Source of the DNA: Candidatus Amesbacteria bacterium GW2011_GWB1_47_19
GTDB taxonomy: Bacteria > Patescibacteriota > Microgenomatia > CAZETR01 > Amesbacteraceae
Assembly (NCBI GenBank): GCA_001002325.1
Contig: LCNZ01000007.1
Coordinates: 91,410-155,409, forward strand
Length of the DNA: 64,000 nucleotides
Direction: 5' to 3'
Numbering within the stretch: position 1 is the first letter of the stretch; every line of letters starts with the position of its first letter. The notes below the pieces were generated by a model. The model saw only the letters and a list, made by a program, of their open reading frames with translations. It made no database searches and had not been told where the DNA came from. A program made the position numbers and the translations under genes. This document shows, in pieces, positions 1-63,079 of the stretch.

Positions 1-389
1 AAGAGGTCCTCTTGTGCGGGGGGACGGAGACCCCTCCGAGTTCCAGAATTCATAAGGCGGCGGTGGGGACGGAAACATGGGTGCCCTGGCGGTATTTCAA
101 AAGCGCTCAGGAAGCGCTTTTTGATCTCAGATCGCAGATCCCAGATCTCAGAATAATAGCAGTCGAGCAGGATAAACGCTCCGCTTCAATTTTCAATTTT
201 CAATTTTCAATTTTCAAAAATATGCCGGCAGCTGTGGTGGTGGGGCATGAGACGGAGGGGGTATCCAAAGAAGTGCTGGAGATGGCGGATAAGATTGTGG
301 AGATCCCTATGTGGGGGGTTAATAAATCTTTGAACGTGGTGGTGAGCCTGGGGATAGTGCTGTATCAATTATTGACCCCTGGGAATTAG
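1..389 (+). CDS. SpoU/TrmH-family RNA 2'-O-methyltransferase, C-terminal part. The 5' end is truncated by the window edge; the ORF is open to nt 1.
   Basis: C-terminal SpoU motifs are present (PAAVVVGHETEGVS..IPMWGVNKSLNVVVSLGIVLYQL). An in-frame caatttt repeat insertion (FNFQFSIFKN) sits just upstream of the glycine-rich motif. Confidence 0.6.
   Translation, partial: EVLLCGGTETPPSSRIHKAAVGTETWVPWRYFKSAQEALFDLRSQIPDLRIIAVEQDKRSASIFNFQFSIFKNMPAAVVVGHETEGVSKEVLEMADKIVEIPMWGVNKSLNVVVSLGIVLYQLLTPGN
125..152 (+). repeat. cagatcN heptamer tandem repeat inside the SpoU CDS.
   Basis: ctcagatcgcagatcccagatctcagaa. Confidence 0.6.
187..217 (+). repeat. caatttt tandem repeat (4.4 units) inside the SpoU CDS, in frame.
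   Basis: caattttcaattttcaattttcaattttcaa. Confidence 0.8.
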
Positions 390-1870
390 TTGTGGAGCCG
401 GGCGAGGCGGGTAGGGGTAAGAAAACGCCAGAAGAAGGGGACGCGCAACTGGGAAAGGCGATTTTCCACCTGGATAGGGCAGCTGACAGCTTCGCACCTG
501 ATGTCGTACACACTATAAATGTAGGCGGCGTTGAAATATAAACCTACGGTGAGTAGAACCAGGAGTGTGCATTGGCGCAGACGATTGAGAAGGTGCGACG
601 GGAAAATTTCATACGAGAGAAAAGGAAGGAAAAACAGGATTACCAGAGCTTTGAAGGTTAATGAGGAGGTGGTAGGCATAAAAGCATTGTGGAGATAAAA
701 CCGGGATGACAGCCAGGTGCCGATAGCTAGAAGTGCCCACAGGAGATTGGGTTTTTTTATAGCTTCGATAACAGCGAGTGAGCCGGTGAGGGCAAATAGA
801 GGGAAGAGGGGGTATCGGTACCAACCCAGGGGATCCTGTTCACCGGAGGAGATAACTATGACTGTCATCCAAAAAACAATCGAAGTTGTTAGATACCGGA
901 CTTTGGGATGCGAATTTTTCAGGATAAGAATTGCCAAACTGCTGACTAGAATAAAAATATACCAACCGTCATAAAAGGTTTCGTTGCTGGTGCTGTAATA
1001 AGGGGTGGAGAGAACATAGCCTAATGATGACCAGCCGGAGGGACGGAAACCCTGGATGCGAAGAATGGTCCAGGCAAAGTCTCCGCCCTGCCACAAGTAA
1101 TATCCCAAAAAAGCGCCCACAAAGGGGAAGATTCCCAGGACAATGAGAAAAGCTTTTTTCCAGTGCTTATACCGGGCGAGAAAAAAAGCAAAAAGAAAAA
1201 TTATGAGAAATCCGGTGGGTTTCATGAGCCCGGCCAAACCGGAGGCAATCACTATCCCGATGAGAAGTAGGATATTGGATCTGGAGTTCTGCTTGCGATG
1301 GTCATAAAAAGTGAATAAATATAGGCTGAGAATAAAGAGGAAGGAGATACCATTTTCGGGCAGGGAGTAGCGGGAGCCGAAAAGGAAAATTGGGGTGAGG
1401 GTGTAGAGGGTGGCGGGCAATAAACCAAAACCCGGACCAAACCATTTTTTTCCCCATGAATAAAGCAAAAGGGTTGTACAGAGACCAAAAATAATCGACG
1501 GGAGACGGATGTGGCTGACTGGCAGGACAGAAAGCAGTTTGTCCCGGTATAAATGAGCGACGCCGCCTGAAAGGAGGGAGTAAAGAGGGGGTTCGTCCAA
1601 CCATGGACGAACCATTTTGACACCCACAGGGATATCCTCTTCCTTACCCAGGAGACCATCGAAGAAAGTCCATGATTTTGGGTAAATGTTGTGCTGGGAC
1701 CAACCAACCGGCCGGCCGGTTTCGATAAGACCCAGACCCGACCATCCATAGTTTTGTTCATCGGCATGGCCGGCTAACGGCCAGCGACCGTAGTTGTGAA
1801 CCCTGATGATGAACAGGAAAATTAATACCAACAAGACTGCCGCTGTTGAGAAAATTCGTTTCCGGGTCAT
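386..1870 (-). CDS. GT-C fold glycosyltransferase (ArnT/PMT-like), polytopic membrane protein.
   Basis: 494 aa with many predicted TM helices. The DEPPLY loop motif is typical of the ArnT/PMT family. Confidence 0.5.
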   Translation of the reverse strand: MTRKRIFSTAAVLLVLIFLFIIRVHNYGRWPLAGHADEQNYGWSGLGLIETGRPVGWSQHNIYPKSWTFFDGLLGKEEDIPVGVKMVRPWLDEPPLYSLLSGGVAHLYRDKLLSVLPVSHIRLPSIIFGLCTTLLLYSWGKKWFGPGFGLLPATLYTLTPIFLFGSRYSLPENGISFLFILSLYLFTFYDHRKQNSRSNILLLIGIVIASGLAGLMKPTGFLIIFLFAFFLARYKHWKKAFLIVLGIFPFVGAFLGYYLWQGGDFAWTILRIQGFRPSGWSSLGYVLSTPYYSTSNETFYDGWYIFILVSSLAILILKNSHPKVRYLTTSIVFWMTVIVISSGEQDPLGWYRYPLFPLFALTGSLAVIEAIKKPNLLWALLAIGTWLSSRFYLHNAFMPTTSSLTFKALVILFFLPFLSYEIFPSHLLNRLRQCTLLVLLTVGLYFNAAYIYSVYDIRCEAVSCPIQVENRLSQLRVPFFWRFLTPTRLARLHN

Positions 1871-1888
1871 GATACGGATGAGATGGGA

Positions 1889-3530: not shown

Positions 3531-3563
3531 CTTGTATTTCAGGAAGTGGTAGGAATTTTTTTT

Positions 3564-3599
<36 letters not shown>

Positions 3600-4569
3600 A
3601 GTGCCTTAGGCATGCAAGTGGAATGTCGATAATCCCGCAAGGGATGATCGGCATCGCAGACGGGTGAGTACAGCGTAGGAATTTGCCCAATGGTGGGGAA
3701 TAACTCGCCGAAAGGCGGGCTAATACCGCATAAGATCGCAAGATGAAAGGCCGTAACTGGCCGCCGATGGAGAAGCCTACGTCCTATCAGCTAGTTGGTG
3801 GGGTAAAAGCCTACCAAGGCTATGACGGGTAGCTGGACTGAGAGGTTGGTCAGCCACAATAGCACTGAGACACGGGCTATACATCTACGGATGGCAGCAA
3901 CCGGGAATATTGCGCAATGGACGAAAGTCTGACGCAGCGACTCCGCGTGAGGGATGACGGCCTTCGGGTCTTAAACCTCTTTTGTCCCGCTATACGGCGG
4001 GGAGAATAAGCACCTGCTAACCACGTGCCAGCAGCCGCGGTAATACGTGGGGTGCAAGCGTTATCCGGATTTACTGGGCGTAAAGAGTTCGTAGGCGTTT
4101 TGCCAAGTTTTGTTTGAAAGACCGAGGCTCAACTTCGGAAACGGACGAAATACTGGCAGAATCGAGTTAGTTAGGGGGTACTGGAACTATCAGTGTAGCA
4201 GTGAAATGCGTTGATATTGACAGGAACACCAAGGGCGAAGGCAGGTACCTGGGACTTAACTGACGCTGAGGAACGAAAGCTAGGGGAGCGAAACGGATTA
4301 GAGACCCGTGTAGTCCTAGCCGTAAACTATGTACGCTTGATCCTTGATTTCCGCCTTTGGCGGAGCTGGGGGTTGGAGCTAACGCGTGAAGCGTACCGCC
4401 TGGGGAGTACGACCGCAAGGTTAAAACTCAAAGGAATTGACGGGGAAGTGCACAACCAGGGGAGCATGTGGTTCAATTCGATACGAAGCGAAGGACCTTA
4501 CCCAGACTTGACATCTCGAAGTTCTACTTTGCAGAAATGCGAAGGAGTCCGTAAGGAGATCGAGACAGC

Positions 4570-4600
<31 letters not shown>

Positions 4601-4915
4601 GGGTGTCGACTTAAGTGTCGAAACGAGCGCAACCCTTATCGCATGTTCAATAGTCTTGCGAAACCTACAATGGGGAGTAACAACGGGTTGCCAAGCCGCA
4701 AGGCGGAGCTAATCCCATCAAACCTCCCCCCAGTTCAGATTGAGGGCTGCAACTCGCCCTCATGAAGACGGACTTGGTAGTAATCGCGGATCAGCAGGCC
4801 GCGGTGAATACGTTCTCACTTCTTGTACACACCGCCCATCAAGCCAGCAAAGTCGGCAATACCTGAAACTCTGGGTTTCCCGGGGCAAGGGTAGGGTCGG
4901 CGATGAGGGCTAAGT

Positions 4916-5640
4916 TGTAAATTGTTGCAACTTGCAGGAGTAATTCTGCAAACAAATCTCGCTGTATCGGTGGAGCCTAAATTGATTTCGGGTATATTTC
5001 GGTATACACTTAATTGACATGGGAATACCGAGGGAACCCTTCGGCTTCGCTCAGGGCAAGCCGCTGGGACGCCGTAGAGACTACACGCGAGCGCCGGTAA
5101 CAAAGGCATATTTAATGGGTATTATTCATGACGCAACCGAGAGAAAGTTAACTTTCCGTATTGCCCAGAAAAGTGAAGAATTTCTTCGCTATTTGAGCAG
5201 GGAATTGGCGCTATCGGATATCAAATCCTGGATTTATAAGGAAGGGAAAACCAGGCAAGTTTGGATTTTGGAATTTTCCAAAAAACATTTGACCGGAATA
5301 AAGATTAAATCCAGAAAAGATAAAGTTGATTATCTGAGGGGTTATTTTGACGCGGAAGGCGGAATTGCCAGAAATCCTAATGTAAGGTTTTACCTGTATT
5401 ATTGTCAAAAGAATTTTGATGAAATGGTGCAGGTGAAAACAATGCTGGAGGATATCGGGATAAGTTGCGGGAAGATTCATAACCCAAACAGGATAAAAGA
5501 CCCGGATTTTTATAGATTTTATATCAGAGCAAAATCTTATACGGATTTTGCCCGAAAAATTGGGTCGTTGCATCCTGAAAAGATGTCTTTGTTGAGGATG
5601 AAGATATAGTCCAAGCCCCGATGAAAATCGGGGAGCACCT
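4916..5640 (+). mobile_element. Group I intron in 16S rRNA (E. coli position ~1506) carrying a homing-endonuclease ORF. Boundaries are accurate to about +/-10 nt.
   Basis: Exon sequence ...gggctaagt is interrupted and resumes at ...gaacaaggtatccc..ggatcacctcc. The intron shares the motif 'tcgggtatatttcgg' with 23S intron 1. Confidence 0.7.
5019..5609 (+). CDS. LAGLIDADG homing endonuclease, intron-encoded.
   Basis: A LRGYFDAEGG motif plus a degenerate upstream motif (YLMGIIHDATE). The ORF lies wholly inside the 16S insertion. Confidence 0.7.
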   Translation: MGIPREPFGFAQGKPLGRRRDYTRAPVTKAYLMGIIHDATERKLTFRIAQKSEEFLRYLSRELALSDIKSWIYKEGKTRQVWILEFSKKHLTGIKIKSRKDKVDYLRGYFDAEGGIARNPNVRFYLYYCQKNFDEMVQVKTMLEDIGISCGKIHNPNRIKDPDFYRFYIRAKSYTDFARKIGSLHPEKMSLLRMKI

Positions 5641-5820
5641 TGAACAAGGTATCCCTAGCCGAAGCTGGGGATGGATCACCTCCTTTCTAGGAGTATCTAA
5701 TACACCCCGAGGTTACGGATAAGGTTCTCGTAAAAAAACCTATCACATGAAACGGGATTGGTTGACTAACGTCAAATCACCAACCGCCGTTTTCCTACCA
5801 CTTCTTGGAATATAATAAGA

Positions 5821-7460: not shown

Positions 7461-7672
7461 TAATTATGGCTGAATTAAAAGTCAACACAGCGGAAAAAGT
7501 ATTTTGGGCGACCGGAGGTGTGTTGGTGGCAGTAGGATTGTTGGGATTGGCGGAAATGTTACGGATCAGGGACTGGGAAGCGGGATTGGTGATTTTTTGC
7601 GGTTTGGGCAGCGGGGTATTGGGATGGGTAAATTTGGTCAGCCGGAGGGATGCAGCCAAGAGCAAGCAATAA
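7457..7672 (+). CDS. Hypothetical small membrane protein.
   Basis: 71 aa with two TM-like segments. Confidence 0.3.
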   Translation: MIIMAELKVNTAEKVFWATGGVLVAVGLLGLAEMLRIRDWEAGLVIFCGLGSGVLGWVNLVSRRDAAKSKQ

Positions 7673-7824: not shown

Positions 7825-8823
7825 ATGAAGAAGTTTTTGAGCAGAAGAAATATTATTTTGCTGGTAATAGCCGGGCTACTTTTGGGCGGATGGTGGTATC
7901 AGTCCAAGTCCAAGTCCAAGTCCAAGGACATTCGGACGGCGGAAGTGACGCGGGGGACGGTAGAGGAAGTAATCAGCGTTTCCGGGGAGGTTAAGGCTGA
8001 AAATAAGGCAATATTGAATTTTCCGGTACCGGGCAAATTAGGATATGTGAAAGTGAGTGAAGGGCAAAAAGTGGTAAAAGGCCAGGCGCTAATGGGATTG
8101 GACAGCCGGGATATTGCAGTGGCGGAGGTGGCGGCGTATTACAATTATCTAGCGGCGGACGCGAATGCCAAGGAGGTAGAAGATTCAGTAAAAGACCATG
8201 ATAAAGATGAGACGTTTGCCCAAAAGAATGACCGGGTGGCAGCTCAAACGGCACGGGATAAAGCATATGATGCCTGGCAGACTGCCAAACGTGCTTACAT
8301 CAATACCAGTTTGGTAGCGCCGTTTGCGGGAGTTGTGACGAGCCTGACTACTACCGTGGCGGGGGATACGGTGGGAGTTACCGACGGTTTGACAGTGGTA
8401 GATCCGCAGGGTTTGTATTTTGAAATAGAGGTGGATGAGTCAGATATCGGGAAAATCAAACCGGAACAGCCGGTGCAGATAAAGCTGGATGCGTTTGCCG
8501 GGGAGCAGTTTGAGGGTAAATTAGATAAAATCGGATTTGAGGCCAGGCTTTCAACCACCGGGGCGACAGTATTTCCGGTTTGGGTGGTTTTTCCCGAAAC
8601 CGCAATGGAGATGCTGAGGCTGGGGATGAACGGTGATGCGGAAATTGTGTTACAAAAGCGGGAGAACGTATTGAAACTGCCGATAGAAGCCATTGTTGAT
8701 GGAGAAGTAACATTAGCAGGCGAGCTGGCGCAGACGGTCAAGGTTGAAACAGGGCTGGAAAGTGATACGGAGGTGGAAATTACTTCGGGCCTTCAGGAAG
8801 GCGCAGAAGTTGTAATCAAGTAA
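7825..8823 (+). CDS. Efflux periplasmic adaptor (HlyD/MacA family). Start is taken at MKKFLSRR; the ORF track begins at 7783.
   Basis: N-terminal TM segment, then an SKSKSKSK linker encoded by an agtcca x4 repeat, then a biotin-lipoyl-like domain. It lies immediately upstream of ABC ATPase and permease genes. Confidence 0.65.
   Translation: MKKFLSRRNIILLVIAGLLLGGWWYQSKSKSKSKDIRTAEVTRGTVEEVISVSGEVKAENKAILNFPVPGKLGYVKVSEGQKVVKGQALMGLDSRDIAVAEVAAYYNYLAADANAKEVEDSVKDHDKDETFAQKNDRVAAQTARDKAYDAWQTAKRAYINTSLVAPFAGVVTSLTTTVAGDTVGVTDGLTVVDPQGLYFEIEVDESDIGKIKPEQPVQIKLDAFAGEQFEGKLDKIGFEARLSTTGATVFPVWVVFPETAMEMLRLGMNGDAEIVLQKRENVLKLPIEAIVDGEVTLAGELAQTVKVETGLESDTEVEITSGLQEGAEVVIK
7900..7927 (+). repeat. 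agtcca hexamer x4 (SKSKSKSK) in macA.
   Basis: cagtccaagtccaagtccaagtccaagg. Confidence 0.7.
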
Positions 8824-11095: not shown

Positions 11096-11192
11096 AGGCT
11101 ACCTTTGCGAGGCTGTATATATTTCATGGAAACTTTGCTTGTACCCAATTTTGACGAAAGCCATTAGGACTATCGGGTAGGCAAAGCTGTGG

Positions 11193-11310: not shown

Positions 11311-11892
11311 ACTATTGAAAGTTGACCCCGGTTTCCCTTCGCGGGAGGCCGAGGTTAGCTTTCAAAAAGTAAGGCTTGTACCTTGAAAAGTGAAGAGAAT
11401 AAAGTTAGTAGAGCCGTATTTTTTACTTCCGTAAGGCAGACAACGAATGCCTAGGATACTGAAGCCGAAGAAGGACGTACGTGGCCACGAAAGTCGTCGG
11501 GGAGCTGCCAAGAAGCTTTGATCCGGCGGTGTCCGAATGGGGAAACCCCCTCTTTATGAGGACCCCGCCTATGGCGGGGGGGGCACGCCCTGAACTGAAA
11601 CATCTAAGTAAGGGCAGGAAAAGAAATCAACGTTCGCGCAAGCGAGAGAGATTCCGTAAGTAAGCGGTGAGCGAAAGCGGAACAGCCTAAACCCCGCCGC
11701 AAGGCGAGGGTGTTGCGGGAAGGCCGAGTGACCGGCAAGGGTAGTCGAACTGTCTGGAAAGGCAGGCTATAAAACGTGACAGCCGTGTAGGCGAAACCCA
11801 AGCCGGCGTGAAGCCGAATTCCCAAGTACCATGAGGCACATACCTTGTGGGAATCCGGGGTGACCACACTCCAAGGCTAAATACTTCAGTGT

Positions 11893-11933
<41 letters not shown>

Positions 11934-13382
11934 GGGTGAGAAACCTAGTGAAATAGAACCTGAAATTGTCTGCTGTCAAGCAGACGGAGTCCCGCCTTTG
12001 GCGGGATGACGTCGTGCCTATTGAAGAATGATCCGGCGAGTTTTCGTTACATGCATGTCTAATCCGTCTAAAGCGGAGGAGGCGTAGTGAAAGCGAGGGT
12101 TAACAGCCCGTATATTGCATGTGATGGAAGACCCGAAACCTGGTGAGCTAACCATGAGCAGGGTGAACCCCGTCGAAAGACGGGGGGAGGCCCGCACTCG
12201 TCAGAGTTACAAATCTGTGAGATGACTTGTGGTTAGGGGTAATATGCCAATCGAACCAGGAGATAGCTGGCTCTCCCCGAAATATATATAGGTATAGCCT
12301 TAAGACTAACTTTCAAGAGGTAGAGCACTGGATGGGCAGGGCATCTTTAGGTGTCCTATTCAATCAAACTCCGAATTCTTGAAAGCTACATCTTAGGAGT
12401 CAGAACGACCCGGCTAAGCGGGCCGCTCTAAAGGGAAACAACCCAGACTGTCGTCTAAGGCCTCTAAATGAATGCTCAGTGTTGAACGAAGTCAAATTCC
12501 TCAGACAGCCAGGAGGTTGGCTCAGAAGCAGCCATCCTTTAAAGAAAGCGTAACAGCTCACTGGTCGACCTTGGAATTTGGCGCGGAAAATGAACCGAGG
12601 CTTAAGCATTCTGCCGAAGACACAGATTTTTTTGACGTTCGCGTCAAAAAAGTGGTAGGGGAGCGTTGAAGGAGCAGTGAAGTCCCTCTGTAAAGATCGG
12701 GATGGAGCGACTTCAAGTGAGAATGCCGGAATGAGTAGCGTAAGCCCGATGAGAATTCGGGCCGCCGAAACCCCAAGGTTTTCCCAGCCATGTTGTTCAG
12801 CTGGGAGTGAGTCGGCACCTAAGGTGAGGCCTAAGTTGGCGTAACCGATGGACGAGCCGTTAACATTCGGCTACATGATAAGTATCGTTATAAAATCAGG
12901 GATGGACAAAATGAGAATATCCGAACGCACGTAGTGAATGTGGCGTTTAAGCAGCAAGACAGTTAGGCTTGGAAAAACCGGTCTGACGTTTAATTGAGCT
13001 GTGATGAGAAGTCTGGCGAGAAATCAACGGGCAACTCGGACGGTTTTTGTTTTCCAGAAAAGATTCGTGGTGAGATATTTATTATGCCGTACCGCAAACC
13101 GACACTGGTGGGGTGGTCGAGTAGACCAAGGCGATCGGGAGAAGGTAGTTCAAGGAACTCGGCAAAAAATCTGGACGTAATCTAGAGAGATGTCCTTCCC
13201 GCCTATGGCGGGACGCAGCGAAAGATTATTCCCCGACTGTTTAACTAAAACACAGGTCTGTGCAAACTTGAAAGAGAAAGTATACAGGCTGAGGCCTGCC
13301 CAGTGCTCGTAAGTTAAGTGGATGGCTGAGATTACATCAAGGCTTGAAATGAAGCCCGAGTGAACGGCAGCAGTAACTATGA

Positions 13383-14074
13383 GCCGAAAGGCCGTTGTAG
13401 TTAAAAAAGTCGACTATATGCTGGAATATCTGGAGTATCTAGCACTAGTTTATTTCGGGTATATTTCGGAGTAGACTGAAAATGTGTCTAGTGCAGACAA
13501 TCAGCAGGAAAGGTTAAAGACAGGACATTTTTTGGCAGGATTTGTTGAAGGCGAAGGAAGTTTTAATATTTCCATACGCCGTAAAGCAGACTATAAAGTA
13601 AGTTGGCAGGTGGTGTTGAGCTTTAATGTATCTCAACGCGATCCATCACTTTTATATTTGCTAAAACAAACTCTTGATTGTGGGATTATTAAAAAACGTT
13701 TTGATGGTGTTTATTCGTTTGATGTGACAACACCTGCGGACGCGATTTATAAAGTAATTCCATTTTTCCAAGAATTTCCGCTTCGTTCAAAGGATAAAAT
13801 TCGTAACTTTAACTTATTTGTTAAAGTGGCGAATTTAATGAAGAACGGAGAACACAAAACCCAAGAAGGACTGTTTAATATTCTGAGCATCAGAGAGAAA
13901 ATAAACTTGGGTAAGGGGAGGACTAGAAAATATTCGATTTTCGATGTATTTCCCAATCTGTCTTTAGAATCCCCAGAGACTATACGTCGACTTCGGCAAT
14001 CGCCGAAATGATATAGTCCGGACTCCATGGCGACATGGAGAGACGTAACCAATCGTCCTTTGTAACAAATCGAA
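13383..14074 (+). mobile_element. Group I intron 1 in 23S (E. coli position ~1917) with a homing-endonuclease gene.
   Basis: The exon breaks after ..gtaactatga and resumes at ..ctgttctatggtagcgaagttcc. Confidence 0.7.
13484..14011 (+). CDS. LAGLIDADG homing endonuclease (single-motif type).
   Basis: LAGFVEGEGSF motif. The ORF is inside the intron. Confidence 0.75.
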   Translation: MSSADNQQERLKTGHFLAGFVEGEGSFNISIRRKADYKVSWQVVLSFNVSQRDPSLLYLLKQTLDCGIIKKRFDGVYSFDVTTPADAIYKVIPFFQEFPLRSKDKIRNFNLFVKVANLMKNGEHKTQEGLFNILSIREKINLGKGRTRKYSIFDVFPNLSLESPETIRRLRQSPK

Positions 14075-14109
14075 CTGTTCTATGGTAGCGAAGTTCCTTG
14101 TCGGGTAAG

Positions 14110-14784
14110 CGGCGGAAGCAAGCCCGACGTAAAAAACTGACTCATATCGGTGGAGCCTCTTGACCTTCGGGTTTTATAAGGTCAGGATGGTAATACCGAG
14201 GGAAGTCGTCCGGTTGATAACTGGATTGACCCCGTAACGACTTAGGATGCACGTACATCCTGGAGGCATTATGCCTAACACGTCAGTATCACGGAATGTT
14301 TGCTGGTATCTATCGGGTTACGCCGATGGAGAAGGCAGCTTTTGTGTAAGTTTTTCTCCCAGAAATAAGTTAAGGTCCAAACTTGAAGTTAGACCGAGTT
14401 TTTCGGTATCGCAAAACGCTGATAGATCCGAAGTCCTTTCTCTGTTTCAACAGATATTGGGATGCGGAACTATCAGGCCAGATAGAAGCGATAAGACTTT
14501 AAAGTTTGAAATCCGAAGTTTATCTGAACTAGTTGAAAAAGTGATACCTTTTTTTGAAAAATATCACTTGATGTCTTCTAAAAGAAAAGATTTTTCTGTA
14601 TTTTCCCAAATTTGTCATTTGATGAATGAAGGAAATAAAAGTAAATCGGAATTAGAACATATCATTAGACTGGCGATGAAGATGAATGTTTCTGGAAAAA
14701 GAAAATATAACACACATAAACTTATAAGTATTTTGTGATAAAGGTATAGTCTATCCCATTGGTGACAATGGATTTAAAGATGAA
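14110..14784 (+). mobile_element. Group I intron 2 in 23S (E. coli position ~1931). It lies only ~35 nt of exon downstream of intron 1.
   Basis: The exon breaks after ..cttgtcgggtaag and resumes at gttccgacccgcacgaa. Confidence 0.7.
14247..14738 (+). CDS. LAGLIDADG homing endonuclease (single-motif type).
   Basis: LSGYADGEGSF motif. The ORF is inside the intron. Confidence 0.75.
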   Translation: MHVHPGGIMPNTSVSRNVCWYLSGYADGEGSFCVSFSPRNKLRSKLEVRPSFSVSQNADRSEVLSLFQQILGCGTIRPDRSDKTLKFEIRSLSELVEKVIPFFEKYHLMSSKRKDFSVFSQICHLMNEGNKSKSELEHIIRLAMKMNVSGKRKYNTHKLISIL

Positions 14785-15310
14785 GTTCCGACCCGCACGA
14801 AAGGCTTAACGAGGGAATAACTGTCTTGAACTATCACCCGGCGAATTTGAAATGGCTGTGAAGATGCGGCCTAACTCTACTAGGACAAAAAGACCCTATG
14901 GAGCTTTACTGTACCCAGGCCCTGTTTTGGATTTTGAGATAGTTTAGAGTAGGAGGGAGTTCTCGGACAAAAGTGAAACACCTCCCGTTTTGGAATTTCA
15001 AAACTTACCCAGACCAGCTGGAAACGCTGGTGGGGACGAGGTCTGGATGGCAGTTTTACTGGGGAGGTATCCTGCTAAAAGGTAACGCAGGAGTACCAAG
15101 GTGCACTAGGCTCGGATGGAAATCGAGCGAGTCGTATAACGGCATAAGTGCGCTTGACTGCGAGAGCGACGGTTCGAGCAGGGACGAAAGTCGGTCGTAA
15201 TGATCCTCGTTAGCCTTGTGGGAGGCTACGAGCTTAACGGATAAAAGCTACCCTAGGGATAACAGGCTGATCGCCGCCAAGAGTCCATATCGACGCGGCG
15301 GTTTGGCACC

Positions 15311-16135
15311 TTAACCAAAAAGGTCATCGGGGTGCATGGCTAGCAATAGCTTTAGCAAGTCTGTTTTAATTGGTTATTTCTGACTCATATCGGGGAACTC
15401 CTTGAATTCGTGTTTGTTTCGGTTTAGTCTAGATTAACATGAACGAGGACAATCCCGAGGGAAGTCTTACGGAAATGGAAAAGCACATTGTTGAGGGTTG
15501 CCTATTGGGTGACGCAACGATGAGAATAAAAACTAATTCTTTGATTGAAATCAACCACTCTTTCAAACAGAAGGCCTTGGTTGATCATTTGTACTTTGTT
15601 TTGAAAAGATTTGTGATTACAAAACCAAAAATGCGGAGAGGTAATGGAACAAGGTTTGCTTATCGGTTTACTACCCGGTCTTTATCTTTGTTCAACGATT
15701 TTTTCTTTCGCTTTTATGCTGGTGGGAAAAAGAAAATTCCTCATGATCTAGATTTAACTCCTGTTCATCTGGCGTATTGGCTTATGGATGATGGGAGCAG
15801 AACTTATAATACCGTGTATTTAAATACTCAACAATTTATAAAAAGTGATCAAGAGGTATTATTAAGCAAACTCCGTGAATTACACATTGCGGCTTCGTTA
15901 AACAAAGACAAGACATATCAAAGAATAAGGATTGCCGTATCAAGCATTCCGAGATTGAAAAATGTGGTGATACCATATATTCTTCCGGAAATGCGATACA
16001 AAATTCCGTAATGACCCTGTATCGACTTGTGGTTTCAAGACCACGGACTCGCCTTTCGGCGGGTAAGACGTCAGCTCCCGATTTGCTTTATTGGGATGAA
16101 GGTATAGTCAGCGCTTCGAGTAATCGGAGTATCTA
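15311..16135 (+). mobile_element. Group I intron 3 in 23S (E. coli position ~2449).
   Basis: The exon breaks after ..ggtttggcacc and resumes at ..gcgatgtcggctcaccctatcctgg. Confidence 0.7.
15439..16011 (+). CDS. LAGLIDADG homing endonuclease (double-motif type).
   Basis: Two motifs, CLLGDATM and WLMDDGS. The ORF is inside the intron. Confidence 0.65.
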   Translation: MNEDNPEGSLTEMEKHIVEGCLLGDATMRIKTNSLIEINHSFKQKALVDHLYFVLKRFVITKPKMRRGNGTRFAYRFTTRSLSLFNDFFFRFYAGGKKKIPHDLDLTPVHLAYWLMDDGSRTYNTVYLNTQQFIKSDQEVLLSKLRELHIAASLNKDKTYQRIRIAVSSIPRLKNVVIPYILPEMRYKIP

Positions 16136-16205
16136 TGCGATGTCGGCTCACCCTATCCTGGAGGGGCAGTACCTTCCAAGGGTCCGTCTGTTCGCCGGTT
16201 AAAAG

Positions 16206-16242
<37 letters not shown>

Positions 16243-17051
16243 GACCCGCCTTAACATTTGGCGGGTGACACTGAGCTGTCCATCCTTCAAAACGTTTTGA
16301 ATGTATAAGAGGAGTCTGTTAATTGAAGGTCCCAAAATCAGTTTGGGAATAAATCTGACTAAATGCTGGAAAACCTTGTTAAGTAGTATCTACTAGTATA
16401 TGATTTGTATACTAGTAACAAAGATACCTAATTCGGTGGATACGAAGCAAGGCAATCAGCAGGAAAGGCTAGTTAAAGAAATCAGCGACGATTATTTGAG
16501 AGGTTTTGTAGAAGGCGAGGGCTGTTTCTATATAGGAATAGTTAAGTCTTCTGAAACACTTACTCATTGGCAAGTGGTCTATTTTTTCAAAGTTTCCCAA
16601 AATCCATCCGGAAGGGTGGTGTTGGAGAAGCTTAAGGAAAAACTGGGCTGCGGTTATATTAAAAGAAATAGTCTAACTGACAAAACCGATAAAAGTTTGG
16701 CATTTGTTGTGAGAGACTTGCCAAGTTTGTCCGAGAAAGTAATTCCGTTTTTTAAGGATATGCTGTTTACACAAAAGAAGGACGACTTTCAAAAGTTTTC
16801 TCAAGTTGTGGTAATAGTATCTTTGGGGAAACATCTAAAAAAGACCGGAATGAAAGAAATTCTTGACGTCGCTTATACGATGAATACAGGTAAACGCAAG
16901 TATTCAAAGGAAGAGATACTGAAGAATTTTGATGACTAGAATCCTCAACGACTATACGTCAGATCCCGCTTGGCGGGAAAGATATAGTCTGAACCCTATA
17001 GTGATATAGGGAGCGAATACTATTCGCCGTTTTTTAACGTAACAATAATGT
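16243..17051 (+). mobile_element. Group I intron 4 in 23S (E. coli position ~2593, the classical I-CreI/I-CeuI homing region).
   Basis: The exon breaks after ..cgtgagacagtt and resumes at cggtctctatccagtagag..cagtacgagaggacc. Confidence 0.7.
16400..16939 (+). CDS. LAGLIDADG homing endonuclease (single-motif type).
   Basis: LRGFVEGEGCF motif. The ORF is inside the intron. Confidence 0.75.
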   Translation: MICILVTKIPNSVDTKQGNQQERLVKEISDDYLRGFVEGEGCFYIGIVKSSETLTHWQVVYFFKVSQNPSGRVVLEKLKEKLGCGYIKRNSLTDKTDKSLAFVVRDLPSLSEKVIPFFKDMLFTQKKDDFQKFSQVVVIVSLGKHLKKTGMKEILDVAYTMNTGKRKYSKEEILKNFDD

Positions 17052-19012: not shown

Positions 19013-20749
19013 TTGATGGTGCGCGGAATAAAATACGTCTTCGTTTCCGGAGGAGTGATATCCGGGTTGGGAAAGGGGATAACAGCCGCCTCGACGGGGT
19101 TGCTTTTAAATTCCAAGGGGGTGAGGACAACGATGGTGAAAATTGATATGTACCTGAACGTGGATGCGGGGACGATCAGGCCGGCAGAACATGGGGAGGT
19201 ATTTGTGACCGACGACGGAATTGAAACCGATCAGGATATCGGTCACTATGAAAGATTTTTGAACCAGACTTTAAGAAGGGAAAATTATATGACCACGGGG
19301 ATGGTGTATAAGGCAGTGATAGACAGAGAGAGGGCCTTCGGATACAACGGGGAGGACGTGGAAGCGATTCCGCATGTTACGGATGAAATAATCGCCAGAA
19401 TTATTAAGGCCGGGGAAGTGAACAATGCCCAAGTGGTGATTGTCGAGCTGGGGGGGACGGTTGGTGAATATCAGAACGGATTGTTTTTTGAAGCCGGCAG
19501 GATAATGAAACTAAGACAACCCAAAGATGTGGTGCATATCCATGTTTCGTATCTACCGGTGATAAAAAGTATCGGTGAACTGAAAAGTAAACCGACCCAG
19601 CAGTCGGTGCATGTGCTCAATTCCATGGGAATACAGCAGGATTTCCTGGTGGCTAGGAGTGAGAAAGAGATAGACAAGAGACGACGGGAAAGACTGGCAT
19701 TATTCTGTAACATGCGGGATGAAGATATCATTACCAACCCCGATCTGACGAATATCTATGAAGTTCCGATTTGGCTTGAAAAACAGGACTTTTCGAATAA
19801 ATTACTGCGCAGAGCCGGCCTAAAGCCCCGGAAAAAAGATTTGAAAGAATGGCGGGAGTTTGCCGGAAAACTGGCAACAGGGGGAAAAGAATTAAGAATA
19901 GCCATGGTGGGTAAGTATTTTCAAACCGGTGATTATATGTTGTCTGATGCTTATATCTGTGTAATAGAGGCGTTAAAACATGCCGGGGTAATAATGGGAG
20001 TAAGGCCGGTGGTGGAGTGGGTGATTTCGGATAAAGTTGACAGGAAAGCGGTAGATAAACAATTGAATGGTTTTGACGGAATTATTGTACCCCAAGGATG
20101 GGGAAGCCGGGGAGTGGAAGGAAAAATTGCGGCGGTAGAATTCGCCAGGAGGAAAAAAATTCCGTACCTGGGATTGTGTTTCGGAATGCAGATGGCAGTT
20201 ATTGAATACAGCAGGAACATTCTGGGACTTGACGAAGCCAATTCGACTGAGGTGAATCCGAAAACTAAATATCCGGTGATTCATATCATGCCGGACCAAA
20301 AAAAGTATCTGGAAGCACACCATTACGGCGGAACGATCAGACTAGGTTCCTGGCCTTGCTCGGTTGAACCAGGGTCAATATTAGAGAAAGCGTATAAAAG
20401 TTATGGGAAAGAACCAAACAAAATTTTTAATGACCAATTTGAAATTTTAAATCAATTTAAAAATTTAAATTTGAATGAAAATTTGAAATTAAAAATTAGT
20501 AATTTAATTTATGAAAGACATAGGCACAGATATGAAGTGAATAATGAATATCGGGAAAAACTGGAAAAAGCAGGTTTGGTGGTGTCCGGAGTCAGCCCGG
20601 ACGGGAAGCTAGTGGAGGCGGTGGAGTTACCCCGGAAAGTACATCCGTTTTTCGTAGGCACCCAGTTTCATCCGGAATATAAATCCCGGCCGTTGTCAGC
20701 ACACCCGCTGTTTTTGAGTTTTATAAAAGCGGCCATTGACCGGAGATAG
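19013..20749 (+). CDS. pyrG: CTP synthase.
   Basis: N-terminal KYVFVSGGVISGLGKGI and C-terminal glutaminase ERHRHRYEVN..GTQFHPE. An AT-rich, low-complexity ~30-aa insertion lies at 20427-20520. Confidence 0.9.
   Translation: MMVRGIKYVFVSGGVISGLGKGITAASTGLLLNSKGVRTTMVKIDMYLNVDAGTIRPAEHGEVFVTDDGIETDQDIGHYERFLNQTLRRENYMTTGMVYKAVIDRERAFGYNGEDVEAIPHVTDEIIARIIKAGEVNNAQVVIVELGGTVGEYQNGLFFEAGRIMKLRQPKDVVHIHVSYLPVIKSIGELKSKPTQQSVHVLNSMGIQQDFLVARSEKEIDKRRRERLALFCNMRDEDIITNPDLTNIYEVPIWLEKQDFSNKLLRRAGLKPRKKDLKEWREFAGKLATGGKELRIAMVGKYFQTGDYMLSDAYICVIEALKHAGVIMGVRPVVEWVISDKVDRKAVDKQLNGFDGIIVPQGWGSRGVEGKIAAVEFARRKKIPYLGLCFGMQMAVIEYSRNILGLDEANSTEVNPKTKYPVIHIMPDQKKYLEAHHYGGTIRLGSWPCSVEPGSILEKAYKSYGKEPNKIFNDQFEILNQFKNLNLNENLKLKISNLIYERHRHRYEVNNEYREKLEKAGLVVSGVSPDGKLVEAVELPRKVHPFFVGTQFHPEYKSRPLSAHPLFLSFIKAAIDRR
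20427..20520 (+). repeat. AT-rich low-complexity in-frame insertion in pyrG.
   Basis: ccaatttgaaattttaaatcaatttaaaaatttaaatttgaatgaaaatttgaaattaaaaatt. Confidence 0.6.
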
Positions 20750-45492: not shown

Positions 45493-46368
45493 GTGGAAAT
45501 TGAGAAGGTGATCAAGGAGTTTGTGGACGAGTTTTGTGATTTGGTATGGAAGGAGTTGGGAGGAAAGGGAATAAAGGGAATTGGAGTAACCGGAAGTTAT
45601 GCTCGGGGTGATTACTCCAAAACAAGACCTGATGTTAATTTTGCAGTATTTGGGACATCGGATGCTGCGGTTTCATGGAAAATAGGCCGGGTGGCATCCG
45701 GTTTAAATAAAAAATATTCCCAGTGGGTAAATTTGCGTCCGGAATATCATCCGGAAAGATTTGCAGCTCCGTGGGGGAGAGATATAAATAAAACCGATTT
45801 GTTTTTTAAAATAGCGTTTTTTGATGTTAAGGAGAGGGATTTATTAATGCCCTTCGGGCGGCCGGGATATGTATTGGAAGGTCACAAATTGTCGATAAAA
45901 ATGTGGCATGGTAGAAATTTATTTGAGGATATCATTGTTACATCGAGTAATGATGAAGTAATTAAGGGGTGCAATTATATGTATTCACAGTGGGTGAGAG
46001 CAATAAAACTTACCCCTTTGGCATATGACTTGGAGCAGGATGCGGATCTGTTCTTTGGCGAAGCATTAGTATGGGGAAAAATTGCGGTTCAGCAGTATGC
46101 TTGGGTACAGGGGATAAAAAACGGACTGGATTATGTGAATGATGAGGATAGGATGAAAATATTTAGTCGGGTGCATGACAAAGAAAAACTCCGGGGTTTT
46201 TTTAAGCTACCCAGGAAAGAGCAGGAGATGGTGAATTTAATATTAGATGCAAGGAAGAAATATCAGGAATGGAAGACAGATTCCAAGATGGCAGAAAAGC
46301 TATATCAAAGTTCATATCACCTTCTAAATTATTTCTGGGATGAGACAAAGAAATTGATGCCTAAATAA
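45493..46368 (+). CDS. Nucleotidyltransferase-domain protein (pol-beta superfamily, MNT/KNTase-like).
   Basis: GSYARGDYSKTRPDVNF matches hG[GS]x9-13Dh[DE]h, but the second acidic residue is replaced by N. At 291 aa it is larger than a minimal MNT. Confidence 0.45.
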   Translation: MEIEKVIKEFVDEFCDLVWKELGGKGIKGIGVTGSYARGDYSKTRPDVNFAVFGTSDAAVSWKIGRVASGLNKKYSQWVNLRPEYHPERFAAPWGRDINKTDLFFKIAFFDVKERDLLMPFGRPGYVLEGHKLSIKMWHGRNLFEDIIVTSSNDEVIKGCNYMYSQWVRAIKLTPLAYDLEQDADLFFGEALVWGKIAVQQYAWVQGIKNGLDYVNDEDRMKIFSRVHDKEKLRGFFKLPRKEQEMVNLILDARKKYQEWKTDSKMAEKLYQSSYHLLNYFWDETKKLMPK

Positions 46369-46396: not shown

Positions 46397-47641
46397 ATGG
46401 GGGATATGGATAAAGTGAAACTGAAAAAGGAAATTAGGTGGTGGGGACAGAGGGTGAAGAATGTGTATCATTTCCTGGTATCGGCGGCGATGGTAATAAA
46501 ATACGGATATCCGGCGGGAAAACTGACAGTAATCGGAGTGACGGGGACGGACGGAAAGACGACGACATGCACTCTGATATACGAAATACTCAAGGCTGCA
46601 GGGTACAAAACAGCTTTGATTTCCACCGTGGTAGCGAAAATAGGTGATCAGGAGATAGAAACCGGTCTGCATACGACGAATCCGGATGCGAGACAGATGC
46701 AGCCTTTGTTAGCGCGAATGGTAAAGGCGGGAGTGACGCATCTGGTGATGGAGGTGACAGCGCACGGACTGGACCAATACCGGGTATGGGGGTGCAATTT
46801 TTATATCGGGGTACTGACGAATATAACCCATGAACATCTGGATGATTTTGTGGATATGAGGAGATATATATCTGCTAAAGCCAAGTTGTTTAGGGGAGTA
46901 AAGTTTGCCGTATTGAATGGGGATGATCTGTCGTTTAGGAATTTACAATTTTCAATTTACAATTTTCAATCAAATTCAAAACCCCAAATAATTAAATATT
47001 CAAAAACAAAATTAAAAAATATCAGTCCAGCGCTTTTTGGGGGATACAATTTATATAATATCGGCGCGGCGGAAGCGGTGTGCCGAATATTAGAAATTAG
47101 AAGTGAGATAGTAGAATTGACAGTAGGTAATTTTTCAGGAGTACCGGGGAGGAGGGAAGAAGTGAAGGTGGGGCAAAAATTCAGGATATACGTTGATTTT
47201 GCTCATACTCCCAATGCTTTGGAACAGATGCTAAGGACACTTCAAGCGGAGCAGGCACAGCAGGCAAAGAAAGGTAAAATAATTCTGGTTTTTGGGTGCA
47301 CGGGGGAGAGAGATAAAGATAAAAGACCTATGATGGGAGAGATTGCCGCGAGGCTGGCGGATGTGGTGATAGTTACTTCGGACGATACGAGGATGGAAGA
47401 TCAAAATGAGATTGCCCGGCAAATTGTCGCCGGGATAGAAAAGAGAGACAGAAACAGAGTAATTATTGAAAATGACAGGCGGAAAGCGATTGAAATGGCA
47501 GTGGGTAAGGCCAAACCCGGCGACGCTGTATTATTGGCAGGAAAAGGGCATGAAAAGTCTATTCTGATAGGTAAAACCGAGAGACATTGGTCGGACAAAG
47601 AAGAGGTAATACAGGCTTTTGAAAAGCAGGTTTGTCTGTGA
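46397..47641 (+). CDS. murE: UDP-N-acetylmuramoyl-L-alanyl-D-glutamate--2,6-diaminopimelate (or L-Lys) ligase.
   Basis: P-loop VIGVTGTDGKTTT and the MurE DFAHTPNAL motif. An AT-rich in-frame insertion (NLQFSIYNFQSNSKPQIIKYSKTKLKN) lies at 46941-47030. Confidence 0.7.
   Translation: MGDMDKVKLKKEIRWWGQRVKNVYHFLVSAAMVIKYGYPAGKLTVIGVTGTDGKTTTCTLIYEILKAAGYKTALISTVVAKIGDQEIETGLHTTNPDARQMQPLLARMVKAGVTHLVMEVTAHGLDQYRVWGCNFYIGVLTNITHEHLDDFVDMRRYISAKAKLFRGVKFAVLNGDDLSFRNLQFSIYNFQSNSKPQIIKYSKTKLKNISPALFGGYNLYNIGAAEAVCRILEIRSEIVELTVGNFSGVPGRREEVKVGQKFRIYVDFAHTPNALEQMLRTLQAEQAQQAKKGKIILVFGCTGERDKDKRPMMGEIAARLADVVIVTSDDTRMEDQNEIARQIVAGIEKRDRNRVIIENDRRKAIEMAVGKAKPGDAVLLAGKGHEKSILIGKTERHWSDKEEVIQAFEKQVCL
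46941..47030 (+). repeat. caatttt-family AT-rich module inside murE, in frame.
   Basis: aatttacaattttcaatttacaattttcaatcaaattcaaaacccc... Confidence 0.7.
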
Positions 47642-61459: not shown

Positions 61460-61954
61460 ATGCGTGTTTGGGCTAAGTGGGTGAGGGTGACAGGAATGAT
61501 ATTCGGAATCGGTTTTTGCGGTTTTCTTTTCAGTAAATATGTGTTTGATTTGCGGGGTTTGGTGGGATTGTTGGGGCGTGAATCCTGTTCCAGACGAGTG
61601 AACTTTGATTTGGATAAGAAATATCCGGTGACTGACATTTGGGATAAAGCCCGGATGGCTGGTTATAGTTTGGAAGAAGGTGATACAGAGCCGATGATGA
61701 GGAATTTGGCTACGTTGGGTGCGAGTATCGTGGTGGAGTTGTCCGGTAAAAGATATGATTTGGGTTTTTGGCATAAAGGCGGGATGACAGTCAGGGATGT
61801 GACAGGAGATGTTGAGGGGAAATATATCTGCTTCGTTCCGGAATGGATTATCAGATCTGACTTGAACGGGATATTCCGTAAAATGGGGGTGGGGTTGGAT
61901 ATGCGATTGGGGATTGAGGTCGAGCATTTTTATAAAATCCTGCCTTTACTTTAG
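61460..61954 (+). CDS. Hypothetical protein with an N-terminal TM segment.
   Basis: 164-aa ORF with no recognisable motif. Confidence 0.3.
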   Translation: MRVWAKWVRVTGMIFGIGFCGFLFSKYVFDLRGLVGLLGRESCSRRVNFDLDKKYPVTDIWDKARMAGYSLEEGDTEPMMRNLATLGASIVVELSGKRYDLGFWHKGGMTVRDVTGDVEGKYICFVPEWIIRSDLNGIFRKMGVGLDMRLGIEVEHFYKILPLL

Positions 61955-61957
61955 GGT

Positions 61958-63079
61958 ATGAGGATCGGGGTTGATGCCAGCAGGGCGTTTGTGCCTGACA
62001 GGACCGGGACGGAGGAGTATTCGTGGCAGATAATAAAGCATATTTTAGCTTTGCCGGAGGCGCGGAAGCATGAGTGGATACTTTATGTTAAACCAAATTT
62101 TCAATTTTCAATTTTCAATTTTCAATCAATTCCAAATGTTCAAATTTTGAAAATTCAAATCCCGTATTTGTGGACGCAGGTGGGGTTGGTATGGCGGACG
62201 TGGGTGGACAGGCTGGATGTGCTATGGATTCCGGCACATACCTTGCCCGTACTGCGAAAACCAGGGATAAAAACCATTGTTACCATCCACGGGATTGAGT
62301 ATGAATGGCTGCCGGCGTATGAAAATGCCCTACAGCGATGGTATTTACCGCTCAGTACTCAGTACGCAGTGCTCAGTGCTCATAAAATAATAGCCGTGAG
62401 TGAATTTACCAAGCGGCAGTTAGTGGAAAGGTTGGGGGCGGAGGAAAGGAAGATTGAGGTTGTTTACGAAGGAGTTGAGACAAATTTTCAATTTTCAATT
62501 ACCAATTTTCAATCAATTTTGAAAAAATTCAAATTACAAAGTAAAAAGTACCTGTTGTTTGTGGGGACGATACAGCCGAGGAAAAATTTGGAAAGACTTA
62601 TTGAGGCATTTTCAGTACTCAGTACTCAGTGCTCAGTGCTCAATCTCAAGTTAGCCATAGCTGGGAAGTGGGGGTGGAATTATGATGGCGTGAAGCAGGC
62701 TCCGGTTAAGTTTGGGGTGGAGGACCAGGTGGAGTTCACCGGCTTTGTGGATGAACAGGAGAAGAAAATACTTCTGCAGAATTGCCTGGTATATGTCCAG
62801 CCGAGTATTACTGAAGGGTTCGGATTGCCGGTGTTGGAGGCTTTTGCAGCCGGGGTACCCGTTGTGTCCTCGTCCGGCGGGGCTTTAGGAGAGATAACGG
62901 CTGACAGCGGGCAGCTGTTTGACCCCGAATCGGCGGTAGACATGGCAGAAAAATTGAAGGCAGTGGTAAGAAACGGAAAGCTCCGGCGGGAATTGGTCCG
63001 GAAGGGGAGGGAAAGAATCAAAAAGTTCAGTTGGTCAATGGCTGCAGAAAAAACCTTAAAGATTATCGATGGCTTATAG
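61958..63079 (+). CDS. GT4-family glycosyltransferase carrying four in-frame short-repeat insertions.
   Basis: GT4 core (IGVDA..LLFVGTIQPRKNLERLIEAF..EGFGLPVLEAFAAGVPVVSS). Repeats lie at 62095-62160 and 62483-62550 (caatttt type) and at 62351-62382 and 62610-62650 (ctcagtN type). Confidence 0.75.
   Translation: MRIGVDASRAFVPDRTGTEEYSWQIIKHILALPEARKHEWILYVKPNFQFSIFNFQSIPNVQILKIQIPYLWTQVGLVWRTWVDRLDVLWIPAHTLPVLRKPGIKTIVTIHGIEYEWLPAYENALQRWYLPLSTQYAVLSAHKIIAVSEFTKRQLVERLGAEERKIEVVYEGVETNFQFSITNFQSILKKFKLQSKKYLLFVGTIQPRKNLERLIEAFSVLSTQCSVLNLKLAIAGKWGWNYDGVKQAPVKFGVEDQVEFTGFVDEQEKKILLQNCLVYVQPSITEGFGLPVLEAFAAGVPVVSSSGGALGEITADSGQLFDPESAVDMAEKLKAVVRNGKLRRELVRKGRERIKKFSWSMAAEKTLKIIDGL

Follow-up and report, generated by a model that had tools for sequence, protein, structure and literature searches.

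How can a repeat with a unit of seven nucleotides come to lie, in frame, within genes for conserved enzymes? The question is raised by a 64,000-nt stretch of DNA from Candidatus Amesbacteria bacterium GW2011_GWB1_47_19 (contig LCNZ01000007.1, positions 91,410-155,409 of the forward strand; assembly GCA_001002325.1), referred to here as the window, whose proteins point to Candidatus Amesbacteria (Microgenomates, within the Candidate Phyla Radiation, or CPR) of the Rifle aquifer. An earlier note on the window had described tandem CAATTTT units inside a SpoU methyltransferase gene, murD, murE and, twice, a gene for a GT4 glycosyltransferase, together with a looser AT-rich relative in pyrG, and had taken them for one small mobile or recombinogenic cassette inserted into housekeeping enzymes. 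Our analysis reveals that the observation is real and broader than first described, and that the single-cassette reading is supported in part only. On balance, the evidence somewhat favors a reading in which CAATTTT represents just one of the unit families that make up a genome- and lineage-wide population of short, microsatellite-like (STRR-like) heptanucleotide arrays that are subject to local birth, homogenization and filtering.

Analysis of the window with Tandem Repeats Finder and with our own lag-7 scan identified 10 tandem arrays of period 7, against an expectation of 0.1 from dinucleotide-preserving shuffles. At the same threshold, other periods yielded between zero and three arrays, with the exception of eight at period 14, which is the double of 7. 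All 10 arrays measure 30-33 nt (4.3-4.7 units), reside within protein genes and are in frame, and they are placed without regard to where genes start or end. They fall into five unit families, CAATTTT accounting for half of the arrays, and are given here with the pyrG stretch in order of position.

123-152, plus strand: GATCTCA x4.3, in the SpoU/TrmH-type methyltransferase gene; peptide DLRSQIPDLR.
185-217, plus strand: CAATTTT x4.7, perfect, in the SpoU gene; peptide ASIFNFQFSIFK.
20427-20520, plus strand: degenerate AT-rich (87%) repeat stretch in pyrG, with module-like matches at 20436-20457 (plus) and 20469-20490 (minus).
40863-40892, minus strand: CAATTTT-type array in antisense, GAAAATT GAAAATT GGAAATT GGTAATT, in murD; peptide LKIENWKLVI.
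41569-41601, minus strand: degenerate ATATGAG-type array in the gene for a 452-aa protein with no Pfam match; peptide YLLFLNSHISY.
46940-47030, plus strand: murE array, (AATTTAC AATTTTC)x2.2 at 46940-46970, followed by a degenerate AT-rich tail; peptide NLQFSIYNFQS, continued by NSKPQIIKYSKTKLKN.
62096-62160, plus strand: GT4 site 1, AATTTTC x4.4 (62096-62126) followed by a degenerate tail, in a hypervariable loop; peptide NFQFSIFNFQS, continued by IPNVQILKI.
62351-62382, plus strand: CTCAGTA x4.6 in GT4, encoding the conserved motif LSTQYAVLSAH inside a helix; not an insertion.
62483-62550, plus strand: GT4 site 3, AATTTTC array (62483-62513) followed by a tail; peptide NFQFSITNFQS, continued by ILKKFKLQ.
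62612-62642, plus strand: GT4 site 4, TCAGTAC x4.4, differing at 1 of 31 bases from the array at 62352-62382; peptide SVLSTQCSVLN.
63771-63803, plus strand: CGATTAA x4.7, in a WecG/TagA/CpsF-family glycosyltransferase gene that runs past the window end; peptide KRLTINDSRLTI.

The five CAATTTT arrays and the AT-rich stretch in pyrG are therefore present as the earlier note had reported, and the host reading frame is preserved across every segment. The composition that it gave, above 75% AT, likewise holds, the segments that it named containing 77-87% A+T versus 53% for the window. A search for the module AATTTTCAATTTTCAATCAAWT, permitting up to three mismatches, returned seven sites in the window where none is expected, including the two degenerate ones in pyrG. 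The five arrays of GATCTCA, ATATGAG, CTCAGTA (two) and CGATTAA units were absent from the earlier note.

The period-7 excess extends to related genomes. For this comparison, we used 80 loci carrying GT4 orthologues (757 kb), obtained from one metagenome scan, and found 105 arrays at period 7 versus 0-19 for any other period between 4 and 12. The shortest measures 19 nt and the longest 45 nt, the length distribution has modes at 26 and 30-33 nt, and most arrays comprise roughly four units in about 26-33 nt. There are 68 distinct canonical units among 102 of the arrays, with a mean GC content of 0.29. In the relatives, 68% of the arrays lie in open reading frames (ORFs), compared with 85% of random 31-nt windows, which argues for depletion by selection rather than for a preference for genes. 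The dominant unit families appear to be genome-specific. One related Microgenomates contig (L131, Ga0209727_1000273), for example, contains AGAAATT/GGAAATT arrays at 325-347, 5668-5702, 11154-11179 and 12529-12564, all within 21 kb.

Arrays of period 6, about 26-35 nt in length, also occur inside genes of the window, at 32923-32952 (alanine racemase, minus strand), 33824-33858 (D-Ala-D-Ala ligase), 63826-63852 (the WecG-family gene) and 7901-7926 (a HlyD-like gene). The cyclic unit AGATAG is found at three of the period-6 loci, the peptides being QSLSLSRSSIS, KIEKEIEVEKAI and EKIEMEKEIEN, and the unit AGTCCA x4.3 encodes QSKSKSKSK. These arrays may represent a sister phenomenon to the heptamer arrays.

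The GT4 gene permits the closest view of where arrays reside. In a census of 81 orthologous genes, 34 carry a total of 44 arrays, which are built from many unrelated units and concentrate at five hot spots corresponding to residues 46-64, 132-142, 176-189, 218-233 and 334-348 of the window protein. Median segment lengths with and without an array at the five sites are 24/22, 21/21, 29/28, 18/17 and 27/28 residues, respectively. In an alignment of 41 orthologues, both CAATTTT sites correspond to loops of hypervariable length. Residues covered by arrays have a mean column conservation of 0.27 versus 0.56 for all residues. An AlphaFold model of the protein (pLDDT 90.7) places the array-encoded segments in loops but also in parts of helices, with site 1 forming a loop and short helix of pLDDT 76-82. 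The CTCAGTA array at 62351-62382 departs from this pattern of low conservation, as it encodes a nearly invariant motif, LSTQYAV.SA. Period 7 is found at that motif in one subclade only, in which the serine codons are AGT or AGC and not TCN.

Alignment with orthologues also bears on whether the arrays were inserted. The clearest case is PyrG, in which a lineage-specific insertion of about 31 aa (residues 468-498) relative to the Thermus thermophilus CTP synthase, encoded in part by the AT-rich stretch, precedes the ERHRHRYEVN motif. This loop varies from 29 to 62 residues in 120 CPR orthologues, the version encoded in the window is confined to its own protein cluster, and close Amesbacteria relatives carry other low-complexity expansions of the same loop, such as NSKSEYLNSKQIPNSKSKIQN. 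In SpoU, the CAATTTT array adds 4 aa relative to the chain of 1zjr, a tRNA (guanosine-2'-O-)-methyltransferase, and overlies an ancestral 'NFRE', whereas the GATCTCA segment adds 2 aa relative to the chain of 7edc, a tRNA (guanosine(18)-2'-O)-methyltransferase. The MurE segment is about 6 aa longer than that of the nearest short-form representative and shorter than that of canonical MurE. In MurD, each residue of the array has its counterpart in '...L.(D/N)YKL(V/I)IK(S/T)PG', the strand ahead of the SPGI motif; the segment is 1-2 aa shorter than those of homologues, and two orthologues (61-65% identity) share LKIENCKLVIK. A clear net insertion is thus found only in pyrG. Most of the arrays are not insertions, because segments with arrays are no longer than those without. 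The proposal that the repeats are lineage-specific peptides inserted into loops therefore holds in part, for their lineage specificity and for the pyrG loop. At the protein level, the same peptides were not encountered in distant phyla; Amesbacteria GT4 orthologues at 62-65% identity carry NFQFS-type peptides at both CAATTTT sites.

The MurE protein itself (46397-47641) consists of 414 aa and lacks a detectable N-terminal Mur ligase domain, with Pfam assigning only the M and C domains. Between mraY and murE (45493-46368) lie a RelB/ParE-YafQ toxin-antitoxin pair and a protein of about 290 aa without a Pfam domain.

No variation of the arrays was seen in consensus assemblies of the population from which the window derives. 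The murE, murD and GT4 proteins, arrays included, are recorded in at least 17-26 independent contigs from NCBI, JGI, ENA and Logan assemblies, and six population loci that were retrieved are 99.96-100% identical to the window. No length or sequence variant of an array was observed among the 17-26 contigs of the same population, all of which are consensus assemblies. Members of the protein clusters defined at 90% identity differ by scattered point changes, by start sites and by C-terminal ends, and never inside an array. The sole apparent indel (in locus L005) proved to be a run of N in a scaffold. Hypervariability of the arrays was accordingly rejected, and, within the limits of consensus assemblies, they are stable in the population.

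The uniform reading of the CAATTTT copies has a simple basis. Since the unit length of 7 has no factor in common with 3, the cyclic peptide QFSIFNF results whichever frame of (CAATTTT)n is read. Hence the claim that the four plus-strand copies are read in the same phase is correct for murE and the two GT4 copies, which keep a common phase into the tail (NFQS), whereas SpoU reads ASIFNFQFSIFK and the remaining agreement is automatic; a real phase relation, at the junction NFQ-S-(I/N), is confined to those three copies. The reverse complement, (AAAATTG)n, contains TGA in every frame, and a pure array can therefore code only in the sense orientation. The antisense copy in murD is changed exactly at the stop, its third unit reading AAT TGG instead of AAT TGA. 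All five CAATTTT arrays read CAATTTT on the plus strand of the window, which is the G-rich strand. A rule of strand orientation was nevertheless rejected, given that 115 loci of other genomes divide 62 versus 53 relative to GC skew (p = 0.46), and the uniform orientation in the window is therefore attributable to chance or to an effect of gene orientation. The GC skew of the plus strand is strongly positive (+0.14 to +0.40) over the whole window (1-64000), which has genes on both strands.

Evidence that the units of an array change together comes from the fifth GT4 site. Eleven orthologues with 57-78% identity carry a near-perfect array at the same place, the segment comprising 27 residues (28 in one), with units that differ and include AAAGTGC, AGGGAAC, AGGGTAC, AAATGTC, AAAGGGT, AAAGAAT, AGAATCA, AAAGTCA and GAAGATG. 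When compared in register, the units resemble one another more closely than rotated controls do (mean distance 3.59 versus 4.71; none of 2000 controls was as close), and when a degenerate array from locus L149 is included, nine of the 12 units have a neighbor at a distance of 0 or 1. More broadly, minority variants common to at least two units of one array were detected in 25 of 72 arrays, in patterns such as AABB and ABAB. As judged from these sequence comparisons, the site-5 arrays evolve in concert at a fixed position and length.

Homologues that lack arrays already possess proto-repeat motifs at the same places. The seed N-F-(Q/K/R)-F is present at the SpoU site and at GT4 site 1, where AAT TTT CAA TTT amounts to 1.7 units, and the ancestral N-F-(Q/K/R) motifs on which CAATTTT arrays sit encode 1.4-1.7 units. 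At GT4 site 3 the seed is (K/N)-F-K, with AAG TTC AAA G corresponding to 1.4 units of AAGTTCA, the very unit used there by three relatives (L186, L194 and L199), and in MurD it is K-L-V-I-K. Similar local seeds can therefore explain much of the sharing of units among sites in one genome. Some copying between sites is also suggested, because murE and GT4 sites 1 and 3 have in common a derived junction, CAA-TCA-ATT, equivalent to a pure array minus one TTT codon, and because the CTCAGTA pair, whose members lie 260 nt from each other, shows a single difference in 31 bases and the same 2+2 variant pattern in both copies. For the former three copies, the shared junction makes transfer from site to site possible.

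We also searched for structural features that would be expected of an element with defined ends. Two of the copies had been described as ending in an inverted repeat, but these ends correspond to 7-9-bp A/U stems, and RNA folding at the array regions is no better than that of shuffled sequence (z = -0.9 to +1.3). The flanks of the CAATTTT arrays contain neither terminal inverted repeats nor target-site or flanking duplications; where a segment contains no insertion, there is nothing for a target duplication to flank. No hairpin-capable inverted pair of CAATTTT arrays was seen in the window. No known RNA family coincides with the arrays, a whole-window Rfam scan having returned only rRNA and tRNA. 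A function as DNA uptake sequence was rejected as well, since this would require one motif at about one copy per kb, and here there are five CAATTTT arrays in 64 kb along with many other units.

The 23S rRNA gene (11420-15442 and 16138-16224) extends over more than 4 kb and contains insertions with four ORFs for LAGLIDADG homing endonucleases (13484-14011, 14247-14738, 15439-16011 and 16400-16939). The 16S rRNA gene is located at 3558-4950, matching the full-length model over only 1393 nt, and about 6.5 kb of protein genes plus a tRNA lie between it and the 23S rRNA gene.

Arrays of this type are not restricted to CPR bacteria. An exact (AATTTTC)3.3 sequence occurs in at least 120 contigs from many phyla among the matches listed, which include Bacteroidota, Thermoanaerobaculia, Cyanobacteria, Gammaproteobacteria, Clostridia, Planctomycetes and several CPR groups. 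The loci concerned hold further period-7 arrays, some of them arranged as inverted pairs, and the mode of 30-32 nt is alike for coding and non-coding arrays. Within the CPR, heptamer arrays are also carried by the Saccharibacteria loci L019, L023 and L039. In viral contigs, CAATTTT was found at 35 loci, its mirror heptamer AACTTTT at 34 and CATATTT, a scrambled heptamer with an identical base composition, at 18, with broader length distributions. CAATTTT was consequently rejected as a special cross-phylum element, the mirror heptamer being equally common in the viral contigs, to which this control was confined. Closely spaced inverted pairs, in which an AAAATTG array is followed by a 20-40-nt spacer and a CAATTTT array, were noted in Thermoanaerobaculia genomes of 61-68% GC; the loci with inverted pairs are L060 (495-524/546-579 and 1928-1957/1979-2008), L124 (9-52/87-116), L071 (3411-3441/3479-3509) and L058.

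These arrays belong to a known class, the heptanucleotide tandem repeats of prokaryotes, which includes STRR, the GGGAATC repeats of Xanthomonas and the TAACTGA repeats (PMC4692102; PMC4679880). A passage on prokaryotic simple sequence repeats in one of these papers relates an excess of heptamers to a hypothesis of polymerase slippage (PMC4692102, citing Mrazek 2007). The over-representation has been noted since 1990 and 2007 and, according to the same 2015 paper, had not been studied in detail (PMC4692102). Like the arrays described here, the STRR of Calothrix and Nostoc, heptanucleotide simple sequence repeats and Xanthomonas GGGAATC repeats feature tandem 7-nt units in at least three copies, several dispersed families, a period-7 excess, inverted pairs in some genomes and no assigned function (PMC4692102). 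They are described as mostly intergenic and variable in copy number, whereas each of the 10 arrays in the window is an in-frame part of a protein gene, with about four units, no effect on length, a fixed place across orthologues and no variation in the population's consensus assemblies. The TAACTGA repeats of Beggiatoaceae, Cyanobacteria and Bacteroidetes (MacGregor 2015; PMC4679880) are likewise direct heptamer repeats, of two to six copies, that are patchily distributed across phyla, stop-free in one orientation only and rarely found inside ORFs. Unlike the five ORF-internal unit families of the window, they comprise one dominant unit located mostly just upstream of start codons, their ORF cases lying at protein ends.

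Similarities extend to repeats that reside in coding sequence. The amino-acid tandem repeats of Borgs also consist of perfect nucleotide repeats in ORFs, create new protein segments, have independent origins and are genome-specific, but their in-ORF units are all divisible by three and variable in copy number (PMC9879509), whereas the 7-nt units of the short window arrays pass through three frames in turn. The 7-bp repeats of Haemophilus influenzae hmw genes and other contingency loci (PMC2424069) similarly have units that are not multiples of three and lie in or near genes, among them sugar-transferase genes; the window arrays differ in that no length polymorphism is seen and in that they also occupy essential genes. 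Our literature searches yielded no report of CPR genes that contain heptamer arrays. What sets these arrays apart from the heptamer repeats of PMC4692102 and PMC4679880 is that they lie inside conserved enzymes without net change in length, occur with different units at the same permissive positions, are homogenized in place and are stable in the population.

Palindromic elements of Rickettsia were reportedly introduced by Ogata and colleagues in 2000 as in-frame selfish DNA in housekeeping proteins, taking the form of net insertions of 100-150 bp. The window arrays resemble them as repeated DNA tolerated in frame at permissive places of conserved proteins, and differ in being non-palindromic tandem heptamers of about 31 nt that have no stable hairpin and mostly no net insertion. 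A net insertion relative to orthologues is evident for pyrG, is small for SpoU and murE, and is absent for murD, GT4 132-142 and GT4 site 5. Rickettsia palindromic elements and miniature inverted-repeat transposable elements were both rejected as descriptions of the arrays, which lack their defining features. One relative (L127; also L130) carries something that does look like a Rickettsia-type in-frame palindromic element, a GC-rich palindrome of about 55 nt (CCCCCTCTTAAATCGAGCCTGCGGCTCGCGTCTTATGCCGTAAGAGGGGG) that occurs in frame twice in the GT4 orthologue (7477-7575 and 8029-8127), at the same variable loops, and encodes PPLKSSLRLASYAVRGGRG. Its peptides are present in P0021, P0038 and P0077, and similar ones are found at other sites of other GT4 orthologues.

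In the reading that we favor, an array would start on a local proto-repeat within AT-rich codon strings (N-F-Q-F or K-F-K-x) through strand misalignment in a 7-nt register, either by slippage or by microhomology-mediated duplication, the latter being a route by which tandem repeats in general can originate (bioRxiv 10.64898/2026.02.28.708716). Pairing out of register, within the array and perhaps also with other members of its family, would then keep the units alike while position and length remain fixed. In a gene-dense genome, survival would require an array to have no stop codon on the coding strand, to preserve the reading frame, to match the local segment length and to reside in a weakly constrained segment, and with time arrays may erode to ordinary AT-rich loop sequence. 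We infer the misalignment and conversion mechanism, as well as neutrality, from these patterns; the arrays, predicted to be translated within their host proteins, most likely have no function of their own.

Several points weigh against this reading. A 7-nt unit cannot grow stepwise in an essential gene without frameshift, and segments of equal length imply a length-neutral process, hypothetical so far. The 30-33-nt mode is alike in coding and non-coding positions, and a filter on reading frame (+21 nt) was therefore rejected as the origin of the mode of about 31 nt. Half of the window arrays use one unit and three of them have the derived junction, as would be expected from copying between sites rather than from local birth alone. 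Departures from the unit consensus show no tendency towards columns of higher conservation (p = 0.34), striking though the coincidence is by eye in murD and GT4 132-142, and in the site-5 clade, unit distance shows no correlation with protein identity (Mantel p = 0.6). Moreover, near-perfect arrays at 57-78% protein identity could reflect selection on DNA or RNA.

Some of these difficulties are turned into support by other explanations. The cassette in its strongest form, a CAATTTT module of about 31-38 nt copied by ectopic gene conversion or template switching into resembling sites, would overwrite about 31 nt and leave the length unchanged, and length-neutral replacement is precisely the expected product of a conversion patch. 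The shared AATTTTCAA-TCA-AWT of murE and the two GT4 copies, the seven module sites where none is expected, the near-identical CTCAGTA pair and the dominance of particular families in a genome (such as AGAAATT at four sites in L131) all point in this direction, and lineage specificity and tolerance in frame within housekeeping enzymes are what the earlier note had expected of such an element. We nonetheless consider it unlikely. There is no single cassette, as the 10 arrays comprise five unit families. No terminal inverted repeats, hairpin or flanking duplication were seen; 68 unit types exist among relatives, and a given hot spot can hold arrays of unrelated units in different orthologues. 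The seeds are already in place in array-free homologues, the shared 'QSIL' junction at GT4 site 3 is partly dictated by a conserved helix, and CAATTTT is no commoner than its mirror-image heptamer in viral contigs. Alternatively, the array might be a functional cis-element of about 31 nt and four units, recognized by a host factor, be it a nucleoid or replication protein that acts on DNA or an S1, Csp or CsrA-like protein that acts on mRNA, and placed where proteins tolerate it. This would account for a length mode that hardly differs between coding and non-coding DNA or among several phyla, for the upkeep of near-perfect site-5 arrays and for invariance within the population; the arrays would also offer unstructured, A/U-rich single-strand targets, and a regulatory hypothesis has precedent for the TAACTGA repeats (PMC4679880). 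The diversity of units, with 68 overall and five within 64 kb, argues against sequence-specific recognition, and array positions are unrelated to gene starts and ends. Arrays are depleted in ORFs rather than placed there, and viral contigs contain control heptamers of equal composition just as often, with broad length distributions. We regard this proposal as somewhat less probable than the cassette.

Two further explanations fare considerably worse. If the arrays were contingency loci, genes, or at any rate the surface-sugar genes GT4 and WecG/TagA, would be switched on and off by phase variation as a unit is gained or lost. A unit length that is not a multiple of three, the four arrays in one GT4 gene with another in the neighboring WecG-family gene, and the 7-bp repeats that mediate phase variation in Haemophilus hmw genes (PMC2424069) would be in keeping with such a role. 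It is very improbable, however, given tracts of only about four units, their presence in murD, murE, pyrG and SpoU as well, beyond surface or variable functions, and the absence of length variants among the 17-26 contigs. An assembly artefact, in which longer repeats collapsed to about the k-mer length or contigs were chimeric, is refuted for practical purposes. The length of 30-33 nt is indeed close to common k-mer sizes, but the sequence is identical in NCBI, JGI, ENA and Logan assemblies, essential genes keep their reading frames, and the same lengths are found in isolate genomes and in contigs whose names ('k141_', 'NODE_') suggest several assembly pipelines. Chimerism and k-mer collapse are excluded because the proteins, arrays included, recur in independent contigs. 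A more far-reaching proposal, which at present seems a long shot of about the same standing as the cis-element, is that a sequence-independent process acting in several phyla remodels stretches of about 31 nt, at constant length, as heptamer arrays of four units, or that a host factor measuring about 31 nt maintains them. If this were true, such a process would operate inside essential genes of CPR bacteria, continually supplying new protein segments, and the long-known heptamer excess of prokaryotes would gain a defined molecular cause, approachable through concerted arrays at fixed positions.

Returning to the population of short arrays as the favored reading, the location of these repeats inside conserved enzymes means that alignments of orthologues provide a before-and-after record, in which recurrence at permissive positions, unchanged segment length, concerted evolution and exclusion from conserved columns can be followed. 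Two questions thereby become testable, namely by what route a 7-nt repeat can originate in an essential gene while the frame is kept, and what determines the length of about 31 nt. For CPR bacteria, heptamer arrays represent a source of lineage-specific protein segments, and peptides such as NFQFSIFNFQS are by-products of DNA repeats rather than protein motifs.

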